From an uncultured virus (IMG/VR IMGVR_UViG_3300047157_000144) (taxonomy: Duplodnaviria > Heunggongvirae > Uroviricota > Caudoviricetes): DNA of 64,000 nucleotides. The stretch lies in the IMG/VR virus record IMGVR_UViG_3300047157_000144, one strand, 5' to 3'. The position numbers and the translations under genes were made by a program. Position 1 is the first letter of the stretch; each line of letters opens with the position of its first letter. Shown here in pieces: positions 1,096-63,450 of the stretch. Below the pieces are notes generated by a model. The model was given only the letters and a program-made list of their open reading frames with translations, had not been told where the DNA came from and did not search any database.

Positions 1096-1386
1096 ATGGC
1101 AGAACTTGACTTAGACAAGATCAAAAAACAAAAATTCAATATCAGTATAGAGAACTTAGTTACTATAGGCGCTGTAGTAGTTACGGTAGTTGGTATGTGG
1201 TACTCGCTACAAGCTGATATAGAACTGGCAAAGGAATTACCTGAACCACCAGTTTCAAGAACGGAATACGATTTAAAAGATCAATTAATTAGAGAAACTA
1301 TTATATCTACTGAAGAAAAAGTAGATGCTAATTCAGAAAAGCTTGACAAAATTGATGAAAAGCTTTATGAAATAATTAAAAAATAA
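1096..1386 (+). CDS. single-TM protein with C-terminal coiled coil
   Basis: Hydrophobic LVTIGAVVVTVVGMWY followed by a heptad-rich tail. Confidence 0.6.
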   Translation: MAELDLDKIKKQKFNISIENLVTIGAVVVTVVGMWYSLQADIELAKELPEPPVSRTEYDLKDQLIRETIISTEEKVDANSEKLDKIDEKLYEIIKK

Positions 1387-16364: not shown

Positions 16365-16941
16365 TCCATACGCTTTAATAATACAACCAAAAGAAAACCG
16401 CTACAAAAACACTAAAAAAGTATCTGATAAAAACTTAATCCTAAACACGTCGATTAGTGACCATAGGTATGTAAGTAAAGAAGCAATAGTAAAAGCACTC
16501 CCAGGTGCGTTTAAAACGCCTCTACAAGAGTCTGATGAAGTAATGGTGCATCATAATATATTTAGAAGGTACTACGATGTTAGAGGAATTGAAAAAAATA
16601 GTGGTAATTATTTCAAAGAAGATATGTACTTTTGTTATTTAGATCAAGTGTACATGTATAAAAGAAATGAAAACTGGGTAGCAATGCCAGGTTACTGTTT
16701 TGTAAATCCCATACAATCAGAAGATAAATGGGAAAACAAAGAAGAACCTTTAAAAGGTATTGTGGTTTATACAGACGGCTCTGATTTTGTAAACGAAGGT
16801 GAGCTTGTTGGATTTACACCGTACTCTGAATTTGAATTTATAGTCGGTGATAAAAGATTGTATAGAATAAAATTAAATGATATTTCAATAAAGTATGAAC
16901 ACAAAGGAACAGAAAAACTCTATAATACGAGCTGGTTATAA
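16357..16941 (+). CDS. GroES-like beta protein, possibly two tandem GroES-like domains
   Basis: Two segments with GroES-like patterns (IIQP...AIV..LP..DEVMV and CFVNP...KGIVVY..EGELVGF..YEF..G.RLYRIK..DI). Confidence 0.4.
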   Translation: MNNPYALIIQPKENRYKNTKKVSDKNLILNTSISDHRYVSKEAIVKALPGAFKTPLQESDEVMVHHNIFRRYYDVRGIEKNSGNYFKEDMYFCYLDQVYMYKRNENWVAMPGYCFVNPIQSEDKWENKEEPLKGIVVYTDGSDFVNEGELVGFTPYSEFEFIVGDKRLYRIKLNDISIKYEHKGTEKLYNTSWL

Positions 16942-17170
16942 AGCTGTAAAGGAGTTAATCAAAGTCGCTGAAGAAGAAATCATAGTAGAAGATGCAGCAG
17001 ATGAATTAGCAGCAGATAGACTAAAGAATGCAGCAGCAACTAAAAAGTTAGCTATCTTTGATGCTTTTGAAATACTAAATAGGATTGAATCTGAAAAAGC
17101 AATGCTGGAAAACAAACCACAAGATAAACAAAAAGCTTTTAGTGGATTTGCAGAAAAAAGGTCTAAATAA
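16895..17170 (+). CDS. putative terminase small subunit
   Basis: 91-aa helical protein immediately upstream of and coupled to terL. Confidence 0.5.
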   Translation: MNTKEQKNSIIRAGYKAVKELIKVAEEEIIVEDAADELAADRLKNAAATKKLAIFDAFEILNRIESEKAMLENKPQDKQKAFSGFAEKRSK

Positions 17171-19389
17171 TGTCATATCAGCAAACATTATACAAAATCA
17201 TTGAACCTATTAAGCGTACAACGATACATAGACTGAATAAAAAGAAATACTGGGAATACGGATATAACAAAGAACATGATGTAATTGTTATAAGTAAAAC
17301 AGGTAAGATTGGTGATGTATACGAAATACAAAACCTAAAGATTGCTTTACCATTAGCTGAAGATGTGTATAGCAAGGATAACAAATGGGTTGCAACAGAA
17401 TACCCTAAAGAGTTAAAAAACATAAGAACTATATTCGACTGGCAAACATACCCAGAAGAATTTAAAAAAGATTGGTATGGGTACATTGATAAAGAGTTTA
17501 CTAGAAGAGAAGATGGGTATTGGTTCCGCAATAAAGGGATTGATACTTATATCACTGGCTCTCATTACAATTACCTGCAGTGGTCCAAGATTGATGTTGG
17601 GAAGCCAGACTTTCGAGAAGCAAACAGATTATTCTTCATATTCTGGGAGGCATGCAAGGCAGATCAAAGATGTTATGGAATATGCTACCTTAAGAACAGA
17701 CGGTCTGGATTTAGCTTCATGTCAAGCAGCGAGACAGTTAATCAAGCTACACTCACTTCAGATGCTAGATTCGGAATCTTATCGAAGACTGGTAGCGATG
17801 CAAAGAAGATGTTTACCGACAAGGTCGTCCCAATTTCATCGCACTATCCATTCTTCTTCAAACCAATACAAGATGGAATGGACCGCCCCAAGACAGAGCT
17901 TGCCTACCGTGTCCCAGCATCCAAACTCACAAGGAAGTCCATCACCAGTACAACCGGCTCCGCAGGGAGGAAAGACCTCGACGGGCTCGATACAACGATA
18001 GACTGGAAAAACACAGGTGATAACTCTTATGATGGTGAAAAGTTAAGATTACTTGTTCACGATGAATCTGGTAAATGGGAAAGACCAGATAATATATTAA
18101 ACAACTGGCGAGTAACTAAAACAACGCTGAGATTAGGAAGTAGAATAATTGGTAAGTGTATGATGGGATCTACTTCAAATGCCTTAGATAAAGGTGGTGA
18201 TAACTTTAAAAAATTATACAATGACTCAGATGTTACAAAAAGAAACCGCAACGGACAGACTAGCAGCGGACTATATAGTTTGTTCATACCTATGGAGTGG
18301 AACTACGAGGGATTCATTGATTCTTTTGGATTACCTGTATTCGATACACCCGGAGCTGCTGTCGAAGGACCCCAAGGTGATAAAATCGATGTTGGAGTAA
18401 TTGAACACTGGGAGAATGAAGCAGATGGGTTAAGAAATGATCAAGACGGATTAAATGAATTTTATAGACAGTTTCCAAGAACAGAAGAACACGCGTTTAG
18501 AGATGAAACAAAAAATAGTATATTTAATTTACAAAAAATATACGAGCAAATAGATTACAATGATGGAACAGTAACATCTGGTGCTGTATCTAAAGGTAAC
18601 TTCCAATGGGAAAATGGTATTAAAGATTCAAGAGTAATATTTACACCAGATCCAAAAGGAAGATTTAATATATCTTGGGTTCCTAGTTATAATCTTCAAA
18701 ACCGCGTAATAGTAAAAAATGGGCGCAAATATCCAGGTAACGAGCATATAGGTGCATTTGGTTGTGACTCTTATGATATATCAGGAACAACAGATGGAAG
18801 AGGATCTAAAGGAGCATTACACGGGTTAACAGTATTTAGCATGGAAGAAGCACCTGTCTAATTCATTCTTTTTAGAGTATATAGCTCGACCACAAACCGC
18901 TGAAATGTTTTTTGAAGATGTGCTTATGGCATTAGTATTTTATGGAATGCCAATACTTGCAGAGAACAACAAACCAAGATTATTGTATTATTTAAAAAGA
19001 AGAGGTTATAGAGGTTACTCTATGAATCGTCCAGATAAAACAATAAATAAATCTATAACAGCTGAAAAAGAAATAGGAGGTATACCTAACTCATCTGAAG
19101 ATATGAAACAAATTCACGCTGCAGCAATTGAATCATATATAGATAAATATGTAGGATTACAAAAATGGAGATTATGGTAATATATATTTCAATGCAACAT
19201 TAAACGATTGGTCTAAATTTAATATAAATAATAGAACAAAACATGATGCCGCAATAAGTTCTGGTCTTGCTATAATGGCTTGTAACAGACATTTGTACCA
19301 ACCAAAACAATTAAAGACAAACAAAAGTTTTAGATTTTGGATTTAAAAAATATAATAACAAAGGAAGTATTTCAAAAATAATAAAATAG
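17170..19389 (+). CDS. terL: terminase large subunit (indels near 18860, 19165 and 19315)
   Basis: Walker A variant LKNRRSGFS, Walker B LLVHDESGKW, MGST coupling motif, nuclease GCDSYD, AENNK, HDAAISSGLA. Confidence 0.9.
17477..18001 (+). CDS. candidate overprinted gene in the +1 frame of terL (lipoprotein-like N-terminus, P/Q/S-rich tail)
   Basis: 174 stop-free codons coinciding with a visible shift to C/G-ending terL codons. Confidence 0.45.
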   Translation: MGTLIKSLLEEKMGIGSAIKGLILISLALITITCSGPRLMLGSQTFEKQTDYSSYSGRHARQIKDVMEYATLRTDGLDLASCQAARQLIKLHSLQMLDSESYRRLVAMQRRCLPTRSSQFHRTIHSSSNQYKMEWTAPRQSLPTVSQHPNSQGSPSPVQPAPQGGKTSTGSIQR

Positions 19390-21806
19390 ATGAATATATT
19401 ACCAAAGGTGTATTCCCAAGCCAAGCAGTTTCAAATGCTGAGAAAGCAAGTGAAAAATATGGTTTAGAGATTGCAAGGGCATTGAATCAGAATGGTTTAA
19501 AAGAGATTCTGGTACAGCTAGGTACTACGCTAATAGAGACAATTTTCACCGTTTAAGATTATATGCTAGAGGTGAACAGTCAATACAAAATATAAAGATG
19601 AATTATCTATTAATGGTGATTTATCATATTTAAATTTAGATTGGAAACCAGTTCCTATTATACCTAAGTTTGTAGATATAGTAGTAAATGGTATTGCAGA
19701 AAGAACATATGATATAAAAGCATATTCACAAGATCCAGCATCAGTACAAAAAAGAACAGATTATGTAGAATCTTTATTAAAAGATATGAGTACAAAAATT
19801 TTTCAGATTCAGTTTATAATGAATTTGGTATAAATATATATGAAAATGACCCAGACACATTGCCTGAAACGAAGAGGAGTTACAATTGCATATGCAACTT
19901 GATTATAAAGATTCTATTGAAATAGCAGAAGAAGAAGCTATTAATAATGTATTTGATCATAATAAATATGAATTAATAAAGAAAAGATTAGATTATGATA
20001 TAGCTGTTATTGGTATGGGCGCTGTTAAAAACGAATATACAACATCAGAGGGTATAAATATAAAGTATGTAGACCCAGCTGATTTAGTTTATTCATACAC
20101 AGAGTCACCACATTTTGATGATATATATTATGTAGGTGAAATAAGAAAAGTGTCTGTAGTTGATTTAAAAAAGCAATATCCTGAGTTAACAGATGAAGAT
20201 ATAAGAAGAGATATAGAGGGGCAAGGAACAAATGCTAAACTATATAATAAATCTTATGCAGGTAATGACAGTGAGGATAATTCTCATGTTATGTATTGTA
20301 TTTTGAATATAAAACATATAAAGATCAAGTACATAAAATAAAAGAAACCTCTTCAGGTGCTTCGAAAAAGCTATTAAAAAAGATGATACTTTTAATCCGC
20401 CTAAAGATGAAAGATCTAGATTTACCAAAAAGTAATAGAACAATAGAAGTAATTTATGAGGGCGCTAAAATAGTTGGTACTAATAAATTATTAAAATGGC
20501 AATTAGCTGAAAACATGACAAGACCAAAGTCAGATACAGTTAAAGCCCAGTTTAGTTATAATATTGTAGCACCAAGAATGTATAAAGGTAGAGTTGAATC
20601 TCTTGTAAGCAGAATGACTACGTTTGCAGATATGATTCAATTAACACATTTAAAGTTACAACAGGTATTATCAAGAATGGTTCCTGATGGTGTTTACTTA
20701 GATGCAGACGGTATTGCTGAAATAGATTTAGGTAATGGAACTAATTATAATGCGCAAGAAGCATTAAATATGTATTTCCAAACAGGTTCTGTTATTGGTA
20801 GATCAATGACACAAGACGGTGAATTTAACAATGGTAAAGTTCCTGTTCAAGAATTACAATCATCTGGGTCTAATGCTAAAATATCAAGTTTAATTAATTC
20901 ATATAATTATTATTTACAAATGATAAGAGATGTGACCGGATTAAACGAAGCAAGAGATGGTTCAACACCAGATAAAAATGCTTTAGTAGGGTTGCAAAAA
21001 ATCGCAGCTGCAAATTCAAATACAGCAACAAGGCATATATTACAAAGTGGATTATATCTTACGTTAAAAACAGCTGAAGCTATATCGCTAAGAATATCAG
21101 ATGTATTAGAGTTTAGCCAACTACGAAAATCTTTTATACAAGCTATTGGTAAATTTAATGTAGGAACTTTAGAAGAAATTAAAAAATTACAACTTCATGA
21201 TTTTGGAATATTTTTAGAATTAGCACCAGATGAAGAAGAAAAACAATTACTTGAAAATAATATACAAATGTCTCTTCAAAAAGAACAAATTAATTTAGAA
21301 GATGCTATTGATATTAGAGAAATAAGAAATTTAAAACTTAGCTAATCAATTATTAAAAGTTAAGAAGAAAACAAAAATTTGAACAAGATAGAGCTATACA
21401 GCAAGAAAATATTCAAATGCAAACTCAATCTAATGCTCAAGCAGCTCAAGCAGCAGCACAAGCAGATATTCAAAAGCAACAAGCAATAACTCAAAGTAAA
21501 GCTCAATTAGCACAAATGCAATCACAATTAGATACACAAAAATTAGAAAAAGAAGCAGAAATTAAAATGATGCTAATGGAAAAAGAATTCCAAATGAACA
21601 TGCAACTTAAAGACGCTGATTTAAATGTAATTAAAGATAAAGAGAAGTATAAAGAAGATAGGAAAGATGAAAGAACAAAAATACAAGCTTCTCAACAATC
21701 TGAATTAATAGATCAAAGAAAAAATAATAAACCACCAAAAAAGTTTGAATCAGCAGGATTTGATAACTTGGGGGGATTTGGCTTAGAGCAGTTTGAGCCT
21801 AAATAA
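19390..21806 (+). CDS. portal protein (several indels)
   Basis: Follows terL; fragments LSYLNLDWKPVPIIPKFVDIVVNG, MIRDVTGLNEARDG, Q-rich C-terminal coiled coil. Confidence 0.8.
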
Positions 21807-40000: not shown

Positions 40001-43000
40001 AATTCTTAAAAACTTTTATGAAAAAGGCACAAGACCTGATATGAAAAAAGGTACAGCGGCCGCTTTACCGGTCCAAACCAAATTACCATTTGATGAAAAA
40101 AAATGGGAAGAAGTATTTACTAGAAAACCAGGTGAAAGAGGAGAAACTTTTAATAGAAGAGTAGGTGGGTTAATAACAGAAATAGGTAGAGCTATGACTA
40201 ACAGTGAGGTTAGAAAATTAGTTGAACCTAAAGTTGCTATTGTATTAGCAGACGGTAAATCTTCAGCATTAGCTAGTAAAAAAATTACTATAGAAACTGT
40301 AGACGACGCAAAACAATACTTTAACGAACTTAAAGAAATTATTGACTCAGGAGTTTTTGCTCCAGGGTTATTAGGCTATAATGTAGTAAAACCAGCAGGT
40401 AGGCAAATTGAAGATAGCGCTGTAAATAAATTTTTAGGAAAATTAAAAAAAGGTATTAAGTACGGTAAAAATTCTATTTATGGAAAAACAAAAGTAGGGG
40501 TACACATGAAGGACCCTGTCACTGGTAAGCAAAATTTATCTGGAATATTAAAAAGATTAAAAAAAGACCCTCAAAGATTAGCTAAATATAATGCAAAAAC
40601 CGAAAAAATAGGAACCGACTTTTGGTTTTCATTTAAAGAGGCAGCACAAAAATTTCCTCAGTATAGAAAAACATTAGAAAACTTAGTTTATGTTAGCCAA
40701 GATAGAAGAGAGCACCCTCATGCACTTTGGGCTGAGGTTGTGGCTTATGATAAAAAAGCTGGTAATGAAATATTAGAATATGAACATGCTGTTCCTGTGG
40801 GGTATGCTGCTGAAATTTTAATAGAGGCTGCATTTAATTCTGATATAAATTTTAGTGATACATTTAATCTTGTTAAAAAAAATTACAAACAAGTAGCATT
40901 TACTGAAGCTGATGCGTTTAAAATAAACAACCTTGTTACAAAAATAGGTATGCCTAAAGGGTGGGATATTAATAAAGACAGTTGGACAGCAAGATATGAT
41001 ATTATAAAAAATGAAATTAATTTAGATAATCTTGAATGGATAGCTGGCGACAAAAATGCTTTTGCATCTAAATCAATTAAAACAGCAAAAGAATTTGCGA
41101 GTATACTTGAAGAAACAAAAGGTATAGCAATGGAAGATGTTCCATCATTTATTGCTTCAAAACAAAGAGGAAAAAAGAAAGATAAATTTAGACCGTTTGT
41201 TCCATACTCAGCGGAGGATTTTGAGGGTTTAATGTACCCATTATATGGTAAAGGTACAGTTGGGGATACAAATGCATCGTGGTTTAAAGAAAAGTTTTAT
41301 ACTCCCTTATCAGAAGGCTTAATGGCTTTTGATGGTGCTAAGCAAAAAGCTTTACAAAACTGGACAACAGTTAAAAAATCAATAAAAGCATCTGGCATAG
41401 ATTTAAGTGCAGAATCATCAGTTCCTGGTTATACAAAAGAACAAGCCTTAAGAGTTCGTATGTGGTTAAAAAAGGGATATGATATACCAGGATTAAATAA
41501 AAAAGAAGCAAAAATTTTAAGTGATTCTGTAAGACAAGATTTTGATTCTATGCAGCTTATGGAAAAACTTGATAATATATTTCAAGAAAAAATATATCCA
41601 GAGCCTAAAGATAATGATTGGTTAGCAGGTGGTATGTTAACAGATATACTAGAGCATGTTAATAACACCACTAGGAAAGAATACTTAGCCCCATTTTTTG
41701 AAAATGTTGAACAAGCATTTGGAAAATTTGGTAAAGGAGGAAAATTACAAGGTGATAATTTAAACAAATTAAGAGCCGCAATGGGTCAAAATTATATTGA
41801 CGCTCTTGAAAATATATTAACTAGAATAAGAAGTGGTAGAAATAGACCCACTGGTCCTGATAAAGTAACAAATAATTTTTTAGATTGGGTGAATAATTCT
41901 GTTGGTACAATAATGTTTTTTAATACAAGATCAGCATTACTACAAACAATATCAAGTTTTAACTTTATAAACTGGTCGGATAATAATATAGTGGCCGCGG
42001 CTTCTGCTTTTTCAAATCAAAAACAATTTTGGGCTGATTTCACTTTTTTATATAATTCAGACTTTTTAAAAGCAAGAAGATCTGGTTTAAAAACAGATAT
42101 AAACGCAGATGAAATTGCTAGTGCTACAGAAAAAAGCTCCAACAAAGTTAAAGCTGCTCTTGCAGCAATACTTAAAAAAGGATTTTTACCCACACAGATA
42201 GCAGATAGTTTTGCAATATCTATAGGGGGTGCGAGTTTTTATAGAAACAGATTAAATAAATATTTAGCAGAAGGCATGAGTCAAGCAGAGGCTAAAGAAC
42301 AAACATTTTTAGATTTTCAAGAATTATCTGAATCTGCACAGCAATCTTCAAGACCGGATAGAATATCAATGCAACAAGCTAGCCCATTAGGGCGTATTAT
42401 ATTAGCTTTTCAGAACACACCAATGCAATATACCAGGCTTATGAAAAAATCAGTCTTGGACCTTATAAACAACCGTGGTGACTGGAAATCAAATGTATCT
42501 AAAATAGTGTATTATGGTGCAGTGCAAAACTTAATATTTCATGCTTTACAAACTGCTTTATTTGCTTTAGCGTTTGACGACGAAGAAGATGAAGAAAAAA
42601 ATGAAAGATATTTTAATATTGGAAATAGAATGGCTGATACATTATTAGTAGGTACTGGTGTATACGGTGCAATTGCAGCAACAACTAAAAATGTTATACT
42701 TGAAGTAATTGAGCAAGAAAAAGGTAGAAAAGATTTTACACAAGCCGCTATTAAAACTACAGCATTGTCACCACCTATTAACTCTAAACTACAAAAAATG
42801 ATTAGGGCGGGTAGAAGATTTACATATAAACAAGAAAGAGAGAAAATGAGAGAGCTCGGTATCGATACAAGAAATCCAGCTGTACTATCTGGGGGTGAAG
42901 TTTTATCTGCTGTGTTTAATTTACCAGCCGATAGGGCTATAAGGAAATGGAATAATTTAGTGTTAGCCGCAAACAGTGAAACTGAATTATGGCAATCGAT

Positions 43001-43142
43001 TGCATTAGCACTTGGTTATAGTGAATGGGACGTTAAATTAGGGCCTAATCAAAAAGAGCCTAAAATGAATGCTAGAATAAAAATTCCAAGAGAAAAAATT
43101 AAAAGAGAAAAAATAAAAAGAGAACCAATTAAAAGAAACTAA
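37089..43142 (+). CDS. giant internal virion/ejection protein with zincin HExxH motif
   Basis: 2017 aa; glycine-zipper segments, GGHEVLHGI, helical C-terminal region. Confidence 0.65.
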   Translation: MEEYTFGGETYTKDTLQTIAENKGYSFDELLQKNPDIQVKTSPTNQSAFVEPGTALNMESNLGSTSLESQEDDTAIERALGKNFFTDFFGDIYRAAEQGFGAAQAVDENIALYNQGVNASDETILKAIKANKKAMGVGMSDEMRDFNRIYEEEGKGIWGFVKGFVNNPTIFHQLFTSSMATLAGSFLDSEEVAGSAITGAGTGALGGSAAAGVGALPGGVAGFFGGLAGAMETGLTFGELLQEELKKEGKDFSLDNVKEFLADEEKYNLVKRRAVGRGIAIGAIEAVSGGIAGKVGSKIIMGGIKRKGKFIPLTRAGKAIGPKPLTGVAAAVGIEAVGGGTGEVVGRLAADQEMDVAEIGFEAITGTVTAPINIAAGILNQPTYKMHGKKATKADILNQLKGDDVDVSGVSFDVTNDPNLQKQIDDRFESINIKANLKNTRVTDEADINRMVELEKQKKALEGNDTEAAKIELAEIRSELKEIATNYSSTGRKSKATIELEGKNKQIIDNLTSQNVLSTIAFAKSFEGSDILDLKTVTYNNSNDFAKAAEAAGIDADIGFYSDGVIHIDQIAAAKEQMVNVGGHEVLHGILEQYFGDETADLVTKFRKTISSKSDTLITERIVKNYKVKDGSLAFNKEYLSQFSDAVAKGEIQYNDSIFNTIGNFIVDYVLKPLGFSNIKFETGRDVYNFMREYSSSIKEGSLSPKIYKALKQRNKLETVTGDAQGSKALFQEINDLVPKDIKTKAEYDAFTRSPGGRKIFESIYTGPISNYIKNRSVSKIESEKVIDGTIERVLKFNPESKRADGSLIGMQGFVERIMSDTRFAKLDAKKALFEEGERTKKEVNVDESEAAERSTVQIADESAPVETTTPEKRGKQINPLGRFTVGKPELKQQYETKVKEFVENNEIDLLNYKTLKDVAPDITKKIFTSSPGFITKKQNARALHALLPEGAMKQSYGATGLKTSTGIVSGILKNFYEKGTRPDMKKGTAAALPVQTKLPFDEKKWEEVFTRKPGERGETFNRRVGGLITEIGRAMTNSEVRKLVEPKVAIVLADGKSSALASKKITIETVDDAKQYFNELKEIIDSGVFAPGLLGYNVVKPAGRQIEDSAVNKFLGKLKKGIKYGKNSIYGKTKVGVHMKDPVTGKQNLSGILKRLKKDPQRLAKYNAKTEKIGTDFWFSFKEAAQKFPQYRKTLENLVYVSQDRREHPHALWAEVVAYDKKAGNEILEYEHAVPVGYAAEILIEAAFNSDINFSDTFNLVKKNYKQVAFTEADAFKINNLVTKIGMPKGWDINKDSWTARYDIIKNEINLDNLEWIAGDKNAFASKSIKTAKEFASILEETKGIAMEDVPSFIASKQRGKKKDKFRPFVPYSAEDFEGLMYPLYGKGTVGDTNASWFKEKFYTPLSEGLMAFDGAKQKALQNWTTVKKSIKASGIDLSAESSVPGYTKEQALRVRMWLKKGYDIPGLNKKEAKILSDSVRQDFDSMQLMEKLDNIFQEKIYPEPKDNDWLAGGMLTDILEHVNNTTRKEYLAPFFENVEQAFGKFGKGGKLQGDNLNKLRAAMGQNYIDALENILTRIRSGRNRPTGPDKVTNNFLDWVNNSVGTIMFFNTRSALLQTISSFNFINWSDNNIVAAASAFSNQKQFWADFTFLYNSDFLKARRSGLKTDINADEIASATEKSSNKVKAALAAILKKGFLPTQIADSFAISIGGASFYRNRLNKYLAEGMSQAEAKEQTFLDFQELSESAQQSSRPDRISMQQASPLGRIILAFQNTPMQYTRLMKKSVLDLINNRGDWKSNVSKIVYYGAVQNLIFHALQTALFALAFDDEEDEEKNERYFNIGNRMADTLLVGTGVYGAIAATTKNVILEVIEQEKGRKDFTQAAIKTTALSPPINSKLQKMIRAGRRFTYKQEREKMRELGIDTRNPAVLSGGEVLSAVFNLPADRAIRKWNNLVLAANSETELWQSIALALGYSEWDVKLGPNQKEPKMNARIKIPREKIKREKIKREPIKRN

Positions 43143-43144
43143 TT

Positions 43145-43276
43145 ATGCCAAAAGACGCGTGTTATAAAAAAGTAAAAGCAAAATATAGAGTATTCCCATC
43201 TGCTTATGCAAGTGGAGCAATAGCAAAATGCCGTAAGGTTGGTGCTGCCAACTGGGGCAACAAATCAAAAAAGTAA
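43145..43276 (+). CDS. small basic protein (43 aa)
   Basis: Manual translation MPKDACYKKVKAKYRVFPSAYASGAIAKCRKVGAANWGNKSKK; TAATG-coupled to the next ORF. Confidence 0.6.
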   Translation: MPKDACYKKVKAKYRVFPSAYASGAIAKCRKVGAANWGNKSKK

Positions 43277-43551
43277 TGGCTGTAAGAAAAACAAAATCAG
43301 GGGCTAATCTTAAACGCTGGTTTAAAGAAAAGTGGGTTGATGTGCGTACAGGTAAACCTTGTGGTAGAACAAAGGGTGAAAAAAGAGGTACGCCTTATTG
43401 TAGGCCTAGTAAACGTGTATCCAGTAAAACAGTAAAGACTGCATCTGAAATGAGTTCATCTGAAAAAGCTAAAAAAATAAGAGAGAAGAAAAGGATAGGC
43501 CAACCAGCTGGTAAACCTAGAAGAGTGTCAAACACTAAAAGAAGAAAGTAG
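43276..43551 (+). CDS. small basic protein
   Basis: LKRWFKEKWVD...CGR...PYCRP, K/R rich. Confidence 0.65.
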   Translation: MAVRKTKSGANLKRWFKEKWVDVRTGKPCGRTKGEKRGTPYCRPSKRVSSKTVKTASEMSSSEKAKKIREKKRIGQPAGKPRRVSNTKRRK

Positions 43552-43552
43552 T

Positions 43553-44014
43553 ATGGAAAGGATAAGTAAGCATATATCATATAAGGAAGGTGTTAAATCA
43601 AACACAGCTATGAGATTGAACATTGATAATTCTCCAGGAGAATATCATTTAGGTAATATGGCTGGTGTTGCAAATAATATATTTGAACCTTTACGTGAAT
43701 GGGTTGGTGGACCAATAAAAATTAATTCTTTTTATAGATCAATAGATTTGAATAAAGCTATAGGTGGAAGTTCTAGATCACAACACTGTGATGGTAGAGC
43801 TATAGATATAGATGATACATTTGGTCATAAAACCAATGCTGAGATGTATGAATATATTAAAGAAAATTTAAACTTTGATCAAATGATTTGGGAGTTTGGT
43901 ACAGATGATAACCCGGATTGGGTACATATAAGTTATGTATCTGAAGAGCAGAATAGAAATAGATGCTTAAAAGCTACAAGGATTAATGGAAGAGCAACGT
44001 ATAGCATTATATAA
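43553..44014 (+). CDS. endolysin, peptidase M15 family
   Basis: INSFYRS..LN.AIGG...SQHC.G.AIDI...WVHISY. Confidence 0.85.
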   Translation: MERISKHISYKEGVKSNTAMRLNIDNSPGEYHLGNMAGVANNIFEPLREWVGGPIKINSFYRSIDLNKAIGGSSRSQHCDGRAIDIDDTFGHKTNAEMYEYIKENLNFDQMIWEFGTDDNPDWVHISYVSEEQNRNRCLKATRINGRATYSII

Positions 44015-44231
44015 AAAGATTGTAATTGTTTTAGTGCTTATGGTGTTTACGTCTTGTTATAGTATAAAATCTACAGTTGTAAATAAGTTAGACGAGACTT
44101 GGCCTTGGAGCACTATAAAATACAAAGGGAACCAGAATTTAGATTCCCTTCATATTAATAAACAAAACAAAACTAACCATCGCAACTTAAGCAATCTGGA
44201 TTCATTGCCTCCGCCGCAATATCGCCTCTGA
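43986..44231 (+). CDS. putative lipoprotein (spanin candidate)
   Basis: KKIVIVLVLMVFTSC lipobox-like signal directly after the endolysin; overlaps the nrdA end. Confidence 0.45.
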   Translation: MEEQRIALYKKIVIVLVLMVFTSCYSIKSTVVNKLDETWPWSTIKYKGNQNLDSLHINKQNKTNHRNLSNLDSLPPPQYRL

Positions 44232-46113: not shown

Positions 46114-46293
46114 TTATTTAATTCCGCAAGACGTAGTTATTAAGTGAACTACTTCATTTACGCACTCTTCGTTATCCACATATCTATTGCATTTTTCAAC
46201 AGCGTATGTTTCAATTGTTTTTAAATCACATTCAACTTCTGTTTTACTACAGCTTATTAAAGCTAATAGTAATAGACTACCAAATATCCTCAA
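46114..46293 (-). CDS. putative small Cys-rich lipoprotein (start uncertain; frame open to 46464)
   Basis: LRIFGSLLLLALISC lipobox then four more Cys. Confidence 0.5.
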   Translation of the reverse strand: MRIFGSLLLLALISCSKTEVECDLKTIETYAVEKCNRYVDNEECVNEVVHLITTSCGIK

Positions 46294-47245
46294 AATCTTC
46301 TCCTTCGTTTGCTTTAGAATAGTCAGTAGGCCTGATAGCAAAAAAATCGGTGTGAGTAACACCCCCAGTAAGATGATAAAACCAATCCAAAGTACTAGCG
46401 CTGGTTGCATCAAATCCAAAATGATTTGCTTCGTTTGTGTAACCGAGTTCAACGATTTTTTCATTTGCTCTTTTCTTTATAAAGTTTTTTAAATCTTCTT
46501 TCTTTAAATTTTCTATATCACCTTGTTCAAACATTTTATCGATATATTTTAATTCAAGGTCTACCATTATATCCGCAGCTTCAAGAACATGATCTTTACA
46601 ATCTTCTTTTAGGTTTGGTGTTTCTTCACACATATGTCTAAACAATTGACAACCCATTTTTGAATGTAATGATTCATCTCTTACTGACCATTTCATTTGC
46701 TGGCCAATACCTTTAAGTAAGTTTCTAAGCTGAAAGCTATATAAAACAGCAAAAGCAGAGTATAACGAAACACCTTCAGCAAAAGCGCTAAAGACTGCCA
46801 AACTTTTGGCAATACCAATTTTATCTTTTCCTTCATAAGCAACTAAATTATCAAACCTGTCCGCTGTAGCTGGTTCATGTAAGAATGCTTCAAAGTCTTC
46901 AAGACCTAAAGTTTCATTCAAATATGAATACGCAACCGCGTGCACGGTTTCTTGTGAGCCAAATATCATGGCCATTTGTTTTATTTCATGTTTAGGAAAC
47001 CAGTTTACTACATTTTGTGTCCAGTAATCTGATACAGCACATTCTGTTTGTGCAAATCCTAATAATATATTACCAACTAAATGCTTTTCAGATTCAGTTA
47101 ATCTTTCATTCCAATCTTTTACATCTCCAGACATACTAATTTCTGTGTGCAACCAAAAAGCTTGCGCTTGTGGTAACCAACCTTCGTTATAGTATTCTGG
47201 ATAATCAAAAGGTTTGTATGCTACTCTTTCATCAAATAATCCCAT
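46277..47245 (-). CDS. nrdB: ribonucleotide reductase class Ia beta subunit
   Basis: AFWLHTEI, ETVHAVAY (radical Tyr), EGVSLYSAF, RDESLH, HTDFFA.R..DY. Confidence 0.95.
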   Translation of the reverse strand: MGLFDERVAYKPFDYPEYYNEGWLPQAQAFWLHTEISMSGDVKDWNERLTESEKHLVGNILLGFAQTECAVSDYWTQNVVNWFPKHEIKQMAMIFGSQETVHAVAYSYLNETLGLEDFEAFLHEPATADRFDNLVAYEGKDKIGIAKSLAVFSAFAEGVSLYSAFAVLYSFQLRNLLKGIGQQMKWSVRDESLHSKMGCQLFRHMCEETPNLKEDCKDHVLEAADIMVDLELKYIDKMFEQGDIENLKKEDLKNFIKKRANEKIVELGYTNEANHFGFDATSASTLDWFYHLTGGVTHTDFFAIRPTDYSKANEGEDFEDIW

Positions 47246-63219: not shown

Positions 63220-63450
63220 ATGAAACAGAAACTTAGTAAGAAGGCCTTGCTCGCTAAACGCAAGAGAGATCTAGCTTATGCTCTAACTCCTAGAAGAAGA
63301 AAAATGAAAGCGGAGAACCAAAGAAAGAGGAGAGCAGCGATTAAAGCAGGTAAGAATATTAAGGGTAAAGATTACGATCATAACACTAAACGTTTCATAT
63401 CTGTAAAAAAGAACAGATCAAAAACAAAGACGACAAACAACACGATGTAA
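63220..63450 (+). CDS. small basic protein (KDYDH motif, possibly a degenerate HNH)
   Basis: 76 aa, K/R rich; first gene of the plus-strand arm. Confidence 0.55.
   Translation: MKQKLSKKALLAKRKRDLAYALTPRRRKMKAENQRKRRAAIKAGKNIKGKDYDHNTKRFISVKKNRSKTKTTNNTM

Follow-up and report, generated by a model that had tools for sequence, protein, structure and literature searches.

An overprinted gene in terL of uncultured marine podoviruses probably encodes an accessory lipoprotein with a disordered tail

The terL locus and its genomic setting

The window, i.e. the whole stretch of DNA that was analysed (64,000 nucleotides of the IMG/VR virus record IMGVR_UViG_3300047157_000144), represents most of an AT-rich podovirus-type genome with 33% GC. 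Its large terminase gene hosts a second open reading frame (ORF) in the +1 frame, and the features of this locus are the following.

16895..17170, + strand: 91-aa gene abutting terL, presumed from its position to be the small terminase gene
17170..19389, + strand: terL, large terminase (host gene); phrog_6681, E 4e-114, and alignment with G001
17477..18001, + strand: nested gene, 174 aa, +1 frame of terL, terL codons 103-277
17477..17479, + strand: likely ATG start, terL codon 103 (alternative TTG at 17486)
17480..17536, + strand: long, net basic n-region (codons 107-122: +2.2 in open loci, +1.4 in closed ones)
17537..17575, + strand: h-region GLILISLALITIT, terL codons 123-135, with selected T-ending codons
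17576..17578, + strand: Cys34, predicted lipidation site, terL codon 136, followed by Ser-Gly
17579..17998, + strand: polar, Pro-enriched tail, predicted to be disordered
17689..17715, + strand: TerL motif LKNRRSGFS, invariant columns, overlapped by the nested gene
18049..18069, + strand: TerL motif LLVHDES, just beyond the nested stop; the longer ORFs of relatives run through it

The terL gene comprises about 740 codons once the 1-2 nt indels of the window near 18858, 19162 and 19318 are disregarded. Its apparent end at 18861 has to be corrected as an indel error, since the frame of G001, a record that is near-identical over terL, runs unbroken for 740 codons. Together with another indel at 19410 and more elsewhere, these differences from G001 interrupt both terL and the portal gene; the window thus looks error-prone as an assembly, and its split genes should not be taken for biology. 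Other genes of the window include portal fragments (phrog_6547) and a GroES-like gene. Since the 91-aa gene abuts terL, the nested gene is placed within the late packaging operon. We take LKNRRSGFS and LLVHDES to be Walker A-like and Walker B-like motifs, respectively; a PDB sequence search with TerL returned no significant match. The nearest cultured relatives of this TerL (∼39% identity) infect Flavobacterium, Cellulophaga, Tenacibaculum and Maribacter, and many contigs closer than these sit within Bacteroidota genome bins, which points to Bacteroidota as the probable host group. Many phage contigs of the family (L082-L149) are filed in bacterial and archaeal bins of unrelated taxa.

The +1 frame of terL is open beyond chance expectation

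As originally predicted, the +1 frame of terL is open, with 191 stop-free codons between +1 stops at 17423 and 17999; elsewhere, terL contains 27 +1 stops. Over 14,105 codons from 30 genes of the window, +1 stops occur at a rate of 0.084 per codon, and the longest +1 run after this one spans 114 codons. None of 20,000 synonymous shuffles of terL attained 191 codons (maximum of 152), and resampling with the codon usage of the flanks yielded no stop-free run in 20,000 trials, for 10.9 stops expected. The switch of terL to C/G-ending codons is also apparent, GC3 being 0.28 before the ORF, 0.49 inside and 0.23 after it, compared with 0.19 over the 30 window genes. Both the K-hydrophobic-Cys N-terminus and the P/Q/S-rich tail are present as earlier described.

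The open frame could be a by-product of local GC richness, of an RNA or DNA signal or of recombination, with no protein made. Indeed, resampling from the region's own codons alone produces a stop-free run with P = 0.008-0.03, but this null presupposes the very bias that needs to be explained. Besides, some loci with a low region GC3 are open (L006, 0.29; L039, 0.30; L099, 0.29), and others with a region GC3 of 0.58-0.71 have 5 stops (L116, L134, L138). The selected bias also differs along the gene, T being favoured in the h-region and avoided in the tail. Finally, all 80 metagenome loci found with a 10-residue signal motif lie in terL, and 74 of them remain without a stop over at least 116 more codons, a count to be read knowing that similarity ranking favours open loci. 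This reading is already largely refuted and we regard it as extremely improbable.

Distribution and repeated loss of the nested gene

A first set combined the window with its 80 best homologues in IMG/VR. Over terL codons 107-252, 40 of these 81 loci are open and the other 41 display 2-10 stops. The codon usage of their own flanks predicts 6.3 stops for each open locus, for 0 observed, and none of the other alternative frames of terL has a comparable openness. The set was enlarged with 70 loci from genome bins, two further viral scans and two GenBank records; after removal of 43 duplicates, 8 partial sequences and 4 without core, the 289 sequences yielded 234 distinct loci. Their distribution over codons 107-252 is bimodal, with 121 open loci and 106 having 2-10 stops, for 7 with a single stop. 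Loci were labelled as type A (107, including the window), clade B (17, of which 14 open and 3 with one late stop), closed (106) or near (4).

In a tree of 225 rows, for which the overlap was left out of TerL, open and closed loci form clusters, yet about 26 changes of state are needed, at least 14 of which are forced by starred branches. When this tree is rooted on Elemovirus (a long branch placed with a quick method), open members are found in all three basal branches. One early origin followed by many losses would be the simplest reading, and types A and B may also have arisen separately. The nested gene is narrower in range than terL: the +1 frame is closed in Elemovirus and MW202828, and none of the cultured relatives compared carries the gene. 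As judged from these sequences, it is a repeatedly lost gene and in all likelihood an accessory, dispensable one. A few closed or near loci with an intact signal region and few late stops (L103, L106, L139, L045 and the pair L225/L168) look like recent losses in the course of decay.

Import of the GC-rich patch from a higher-GC phage by recombination was rejected, the GC rise being confined to the ORF in many lineages and missing in relatives that have lost it. Since close relatives of the window also retain the open +1 frame, the claim of a real gene overprinted in terL is strongly supported. We infer that this frame is translated and consider it almost certain that it encodes a real protein. 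Assembled contigs of RNA runs offer a patchy cover of the region and are uninformative on frame, strand and start.

Selection on the start codon and signal region in type A

In type A, the targets of selection appear to be the start codon, the Leu-rich h-region, the Cys and the polar, Pro-enriched tail. The ATG at codon 103 is shared by the window, L001-L004 and L007, and more generally by 51/107 type A loci versus 25/106 closed ones. When codon 106 is a +1 stop, an ATG follows at codon 107 or 108 in 20/20 open versus 7/35 closed loci of the first set, and in 28/36 type A versus 14/75 closed loci of the larger one, the remaining 8 of these 36 having a TTG at codon 110. A start at Met13 (ATG at 17513), which had also been envisaged, is ruled out because this codon reads AGG in G001. 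No enrichment of Shine-Dalgarno sequences was found at the nested starts, and a promoter scan, outside which the Bacteroidota promoter type falls, remained at chance level (8 versus 10.3).

The position of these starts also bears on a programmed +1 frameshift that would fuse the N-terminus of TerL to the +1 tail. Fusions of this kind exist among database proteins in a few cases (P0029, P0056, P0062, P0077 and P0088), but their joints differ in place, as indel errors would give. Moreover, an ATG is selected right behind the codon-106 stop, and clade B made its ATG through a change in TerL (see below). Frameshifting is accordingly given very little credit, and internal initiation of a separate protein is retained. 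A profile search with 150 hits gave, among the matches listed (first 110 residues), +1 translations of terL or chimeras, and also a few weak matches to the tail (e.g. P0241).

Downstream of the start, the mean hydropathy of the h-region is 2.47 in type A versus 1.04 in closed loci, and +1 leucines at codons 126, 129 and 131 are found in 98, 107 and 102 of the 107 type A loci versus 50, 35 and 41 of the 106 closed ones. Cys136 is present in 97/107 versus 42/106 loci, and requires a disfavoured G-ending Leu codon in terL. All 107 type A loci have a Cys at 134 or 136, Cys134 being forced by a TerL methionine and also found in 106/106 closed loci. The 10 type A loci devoid of Cys136 all keep Cys134, with a small residue before it in 9 (p = 0.09). 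At position -1, codon 135 specifies Thr in 101/107 type A versus 41/106 closed loci; the TerL Tyr135 codon permits only Ile or Thr there, Thr being the smallest, and a Y135F change of TerL in four type A loci gives Ser. The distance from ATG to Cys is 28-33 codons in 90/107 type A loci.

The synonymous-site constraint anticipated in the original prediction holds for only part of the overlap. Four-fold divergence is 0.37 in open versus 0.53 in closed loci over codons 107-160, and it is not reduced over codons 160-253 (0.60-0.64 open versus 0.51-0.56 closed), where no suppression is seen.

A clade with a relocated start and signal

Clade B, defined by its Cys and comprising 17 loci, is recovered from sequence outside the overlap: its 15 tree rows (15/15) group together with a support of 100. 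In this clade, start, h-region and Cys sit 14-16 codons upstream of those of type A. The ATG is located at codon 89 (15/17), where TerL F89 is replaced by Y or H in 17/17 loci, for F in 106/106 closed and 105/107 type A loci. A hydrophobic run occupies codons 104-118 (hydropathy of 2.17 versus -0.01 in type A), and codons 123-135 are polar, with no Cys136. The lipobox is [TI]-G-S-C, with Ser at -1 in 16/17 loci and the Cys at codon 120 (Cys32). In closed relatives, Met120-Asn121 of TerL reads as TGA in the +1 frame, and changing N121 turns this TGA into Cys; N121 is replaced by C or R in 17/17 clade B loci, for N in 104/106 closed and 105/107 type A loci. The closed record L081 also has Met-Cys at TerL 120-121.

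The start and Cys of clade B thus needed amino-acid changes in TerL (F89 and N121), i.e. an essential motor altered its own residues to serve the nested gene. Leader length is kept, with 31 codons from ATG to Cys in 15/17 loci. The relocation of start, h-region and Cys as a unit would be difficult to reconcile with anything but a product that is translated, exported and probably lipidated, and the canonical Gly-Ser-Cys box supports a lipoprotein.

Evidence for and against lipidation

The layout of a lipoprotein signal (basic n-region, uncharged h-region and Cys) is found in both type A and clade B. The box of the window, T-I-T-C, departs at -1 and -3 from the consensus [LVI][ASTVI][GAS]C given in passages of PMC6139136, where deviants such as AWAC are reported to work (for lipoprotein processing, see also the relevant part of PMC5837995). 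As a control, we considered SusD lipoproteins at 26 loci from five Bacteroidota genomes, three of which were mis-started and dropped. The 23 usable ones have Ser (16), Ala (4) or Gly (3) and never Thr (0) at -1, and leaders of 16-24 aa. Compared with these, the Thr and the 28-33 aa leader of type A are atypical, which weakens the lipoprotein reading.

These two features are also what a real but non-lipidated product would show, in which the N-terminal helix acts as an uncleaved inner-membrane anchor or a releasable signal and the tail is periplasmic (e.g. in lysis timing). The continuous helix that AlphaFold predicts over residues 2-35 and the type A loci lacking Cys136 fit this proposal as well. 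However, the h-region has only ∼13 aa, Cys136 is kept in most type A loci despite its disfavoured Leu codon, the exceptions retain Cys134, mostly after a small residue, and clade B made its Gly-Ser-Cys through TerL changes. We therefore see a non-lipidated anchor as a rather unlikely solution. Lipidation of the nested product at Cys34 is likely, and its description as an accessory lipoprotein with a disordered tail is only slightly less so. In this respect, the hidden lipoprotein of the original prediction stands as an overprinted gene with a likely lipoprotein product, and its spanin-like or exclusion role is unproven.

A long, polar tail with little sequence conservation

In the tail, third-position T, which gives +1 Leu or Val, falls from 0.49 to 0.23 in open loci when non-stop-forming codons are considered, and is unchanged in a control region. 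Among 17 related pairs, chosen by eye from the TerL tree and including some close relatives that are not strict sisters, the open member has the lower value in 16/17 cases versus 6/17 in the control region (p = 1e-4). The GC-rich patch of terL thus results from selection removing third-position T in the tail. A stop at codon 244 is found in 59/106 closed loci versus 0/124 type A and clade B loci, and stops from codon 253 (∼17927) onward are tolerated, which sets the required mature length at about 117 aa. ORF ends are spread over terL codons 253-353.

The Pro content of the tail is 5.7% versus 1.6% in closed frames. Past codon 158, few specific residues are kept, and there is neither a conserved proline stretch nor a conserved C-terminus. 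Selection for an amphipathic or extra-basic tail was dismissed, the charge and amphipathicity of type A being equal to those of closed frames. AlphaFold models built with 37 and 146 sequences have a pLDDT of 48 and 49 and a pTM of 0.20, with pLDDT values below 50 over most of the tail, and are too poor for a fold search. No family match was found for the nested protein in Pfam and PHROGs, the best ESM Atlas score is 0.79, and the profile and motif matches listed include no free-standing copy of the gene. A C-terminal membrane helix is absent in 120 homologues: in 19-residue segments downstream of the Cys, hydropathy peaks at 1.25 or less, the exceptions being P0096 (1.78) and five TerL chimeras for which the score was that of the signal.

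Possible functions and relation to known systems

ORFs inside terL and embedded lipoprotein genes are both already known. Genes 19.2 and 19.3 of T7, a phage of an unrelated family, are annotated in the +1 frame of gene 19 (terL; offsets of 646 and 1183) and offer a positional precedent; their products (85 and 57 aa) are hypothetical and without a comparable leader, and that of 19.2 does not align with the nested protein. The embedded o-spanin genes Rz1 of lambda (within Rz) and 18.7 of T7 (within 18.5) are, like the nested gene as interpreted here, out-of-frame lipoprotein genes inside a late gene (PMC6139136, in part), and their products share with the nested protein a flexible segment after the Cys and an enrichment in proline. 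They differ in that the host gene is here terL rather than an i-spanin gene, that the mature part reaches 117-200 aa without a conserved penta-proline stretch or C-terminus, and that the gene was lost repeatedly. What appears new is a clade with a relocated start and lipobox. A search of paper listings, mostly of open-access literature, on overlapping or nested genes, overprinting and spanins with terminase found no description of the nested gene.

Overprinting of a membrane-targeted protein on an essential gene also has a classical example in phiX174, where gene E lies in the +1 frame of the morphogenesis gene D. E is the single-gene lysis protein of a small ssDNA phage and inhibits MraY. Unlike phiX174, the window phage has its own holin and endolysin, located far from terL.

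1096..1386, + strand: protein with a membrane helix and coiled coil, i-spanin-like topology, candidate partner 16 kb away; no informative PHROG match
2138-2593: holin
43553-44014, + strand: endolysin (phrog_894)

In the mechanism that we propose, overprinting early in a group of uncultured marine podoviruses would have given rise to the nested gene. Translation of its product would begin internally on the late packaging mRNA, at terL codon 103 or, in relatives, at 107/108; a 28-33 aa signal would direct its export, and Cys34 would be lipidated. The mature product would be a membrane-tethered, polar, Pro-enriched and mostly unstructured chain of at least ∼117 aa, in which the length and solubility of the tail would outweigh its sequence. 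It might act as a late helper of envelope lysis, weakening or bridging the outer membrane as a flexible tether, o-spanin-like in its action without being an o-spanin. This role is put forward tentatively, ahead of exclusion and of a non-lipidated anchor. It agrees with the position of the gene in a late operon and with the statement, in passages of PMC6139136, that lipoprotein genes are uncommon in phages and in most cases point to spanins. A bolder version, doubtful at this stage, is that a lipid-anchored disordered polymer constitutes a new, sequence-independent device for outer-membrane lysis that plays the part of spanins in a large group of marine phages, most members of which have no recognisable spanin. 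For comparison, spanins are annotated in some flavobacterial phages (PMC8776804, in part).

Against a role in lysis, no replacement spanin was seen in most closed genomes. The gene content of 16 open versus 21 closed contigs, which are incomplete and cover different regions, revealed no family taking the place of the nested gene. In favour of a lysis role, two contigs carry u-spanin-like genes (lipobox and C-terminal membrane helix) directly behind the endolysin (G018, 42844-43308, - strand; G033:C160, 4807-5316, + strand); both are closed, and no open contig examined has such a gene there.

The original prediction had placed the product among spanin-like or exclusion proteins. The spanin-like part is unproven, as the C-terminal helix, a linked i-spanin and a conserved tail motif are all lacking. 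Unimolecular spanins of the T1 gp11 type share with the nested protein an N-terminal lipoprotein signal and a periplasm-spanning length (PMC6139136, in part), but the absence of a C-terminal transmembrane helix, and of any predicted beta-rich domain, discards a u-spanin. As for a true o-spanin, it would have to pair with the distant protein encoded at 1096-1386. This candidate partner is found in 8/9 open versus 2/9 closed contigs reaching the holin region, a split that is biased because the gene sits in differing places; in near-complete contigs, an i-spanin-like gene is present in 6/7 open versus 5/8 closed cases (p = 0.57), which also speaks against a lysis role. The Pro enrichment of the tail would suit an o-spanin and, according to part of PMC6139136, widely separated pairs would escape detection. 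Nevertheless, the gene is embedded in terL, more than 15 kb separate it from the nearest membrane/coiled-coil candidates, and both the proline stretch and a fixed C-terminus are missing in ORFs whose ends vary over 100 codons of terL. A true o-spanin is in our opinion improbable.

The second possibility raised originally, a lipoprotein that obstructs receptors or DNA entry, either for superinfection exclusion or to keep progeny from being trapped by cell debris, is compatible with the lipoprotein signal and with a patchy, repeatedly lost range that is typical for accessory genes. T5 Llp, also an accessory phage lipoprotein, is a small outer-membrane protein that binds the receptor FhuA (10.64898/2026.03.26.714494, in part). 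However, as described in passages of the same source, Llp is free-standing, early (made soon after infection), ∼60 aa long, compact and beta-rich, with a defined interface, whereas the nested gene is late and its protein predicted to be unstructured, with few specific residues past codon 158. Neither Pfam nor PHROG matches link it to Llp/Cor-type families. An exclusion role thus seems to us rather unlikely, and a late lysis helper is retained as the working proposal.

Our results document a well-supported case of gene birth by overprinting inside terL, which ranks among the most highly conserved genes of tailed phages. The loci that carry the nested gene, those that repeatedly lost it and the lineage with a relocated signal provide hundreds of natural replicates. 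Since terL is a standard phylogenetic marker, it should be noted that its third positions are non-neutral here; besides, the nested product is overlooked by gene callers. If the product acts in lysis or exclusion, it would be relevant to the way in which the outer membrane is breached by phages that lack recognisable spanins, a point that PMC6139136 leaves open. In the same vein, if the product is indeed a lysis device, the nested gene mattered enough for one lineage to rewrite near-invariant residues of TerL.

Other observations in the window and its relatives

In a variable TerL loop (17945-17975, codons ∼259-269), small insertions occur, for the most part in phages that have the nested gene, and in these the +1 frame reads a Pro-rich stretch. 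The genes at 1096-1386 and 1432-1704 belong to a recurrent cluster, also found in G002, G010, G011, G012 and G024, which encodes the membrane/coiled-coil protein, a ∼115-aa signal-peptide protein and, in relatives, also an exported protein of 340-390 aa; this cluster is possibly an envelope module. Directly behind the endolysin, an 81-aa lipoprotein with a canonical VFTS-C box (43986-44231, + strand) is present, among the contigs compared, in the window and G001 only. Another lipoprotein-like ORF (46114-46464, - strand), with LLLALISC and four more Cys, overlaps the end of a ribonucleotide reductase small-subunit-like gene (46277-47245). Finally, small and extremely basic proteins encoded at 686-967, 43276-43551 and 63220-63450 are kept across the family.
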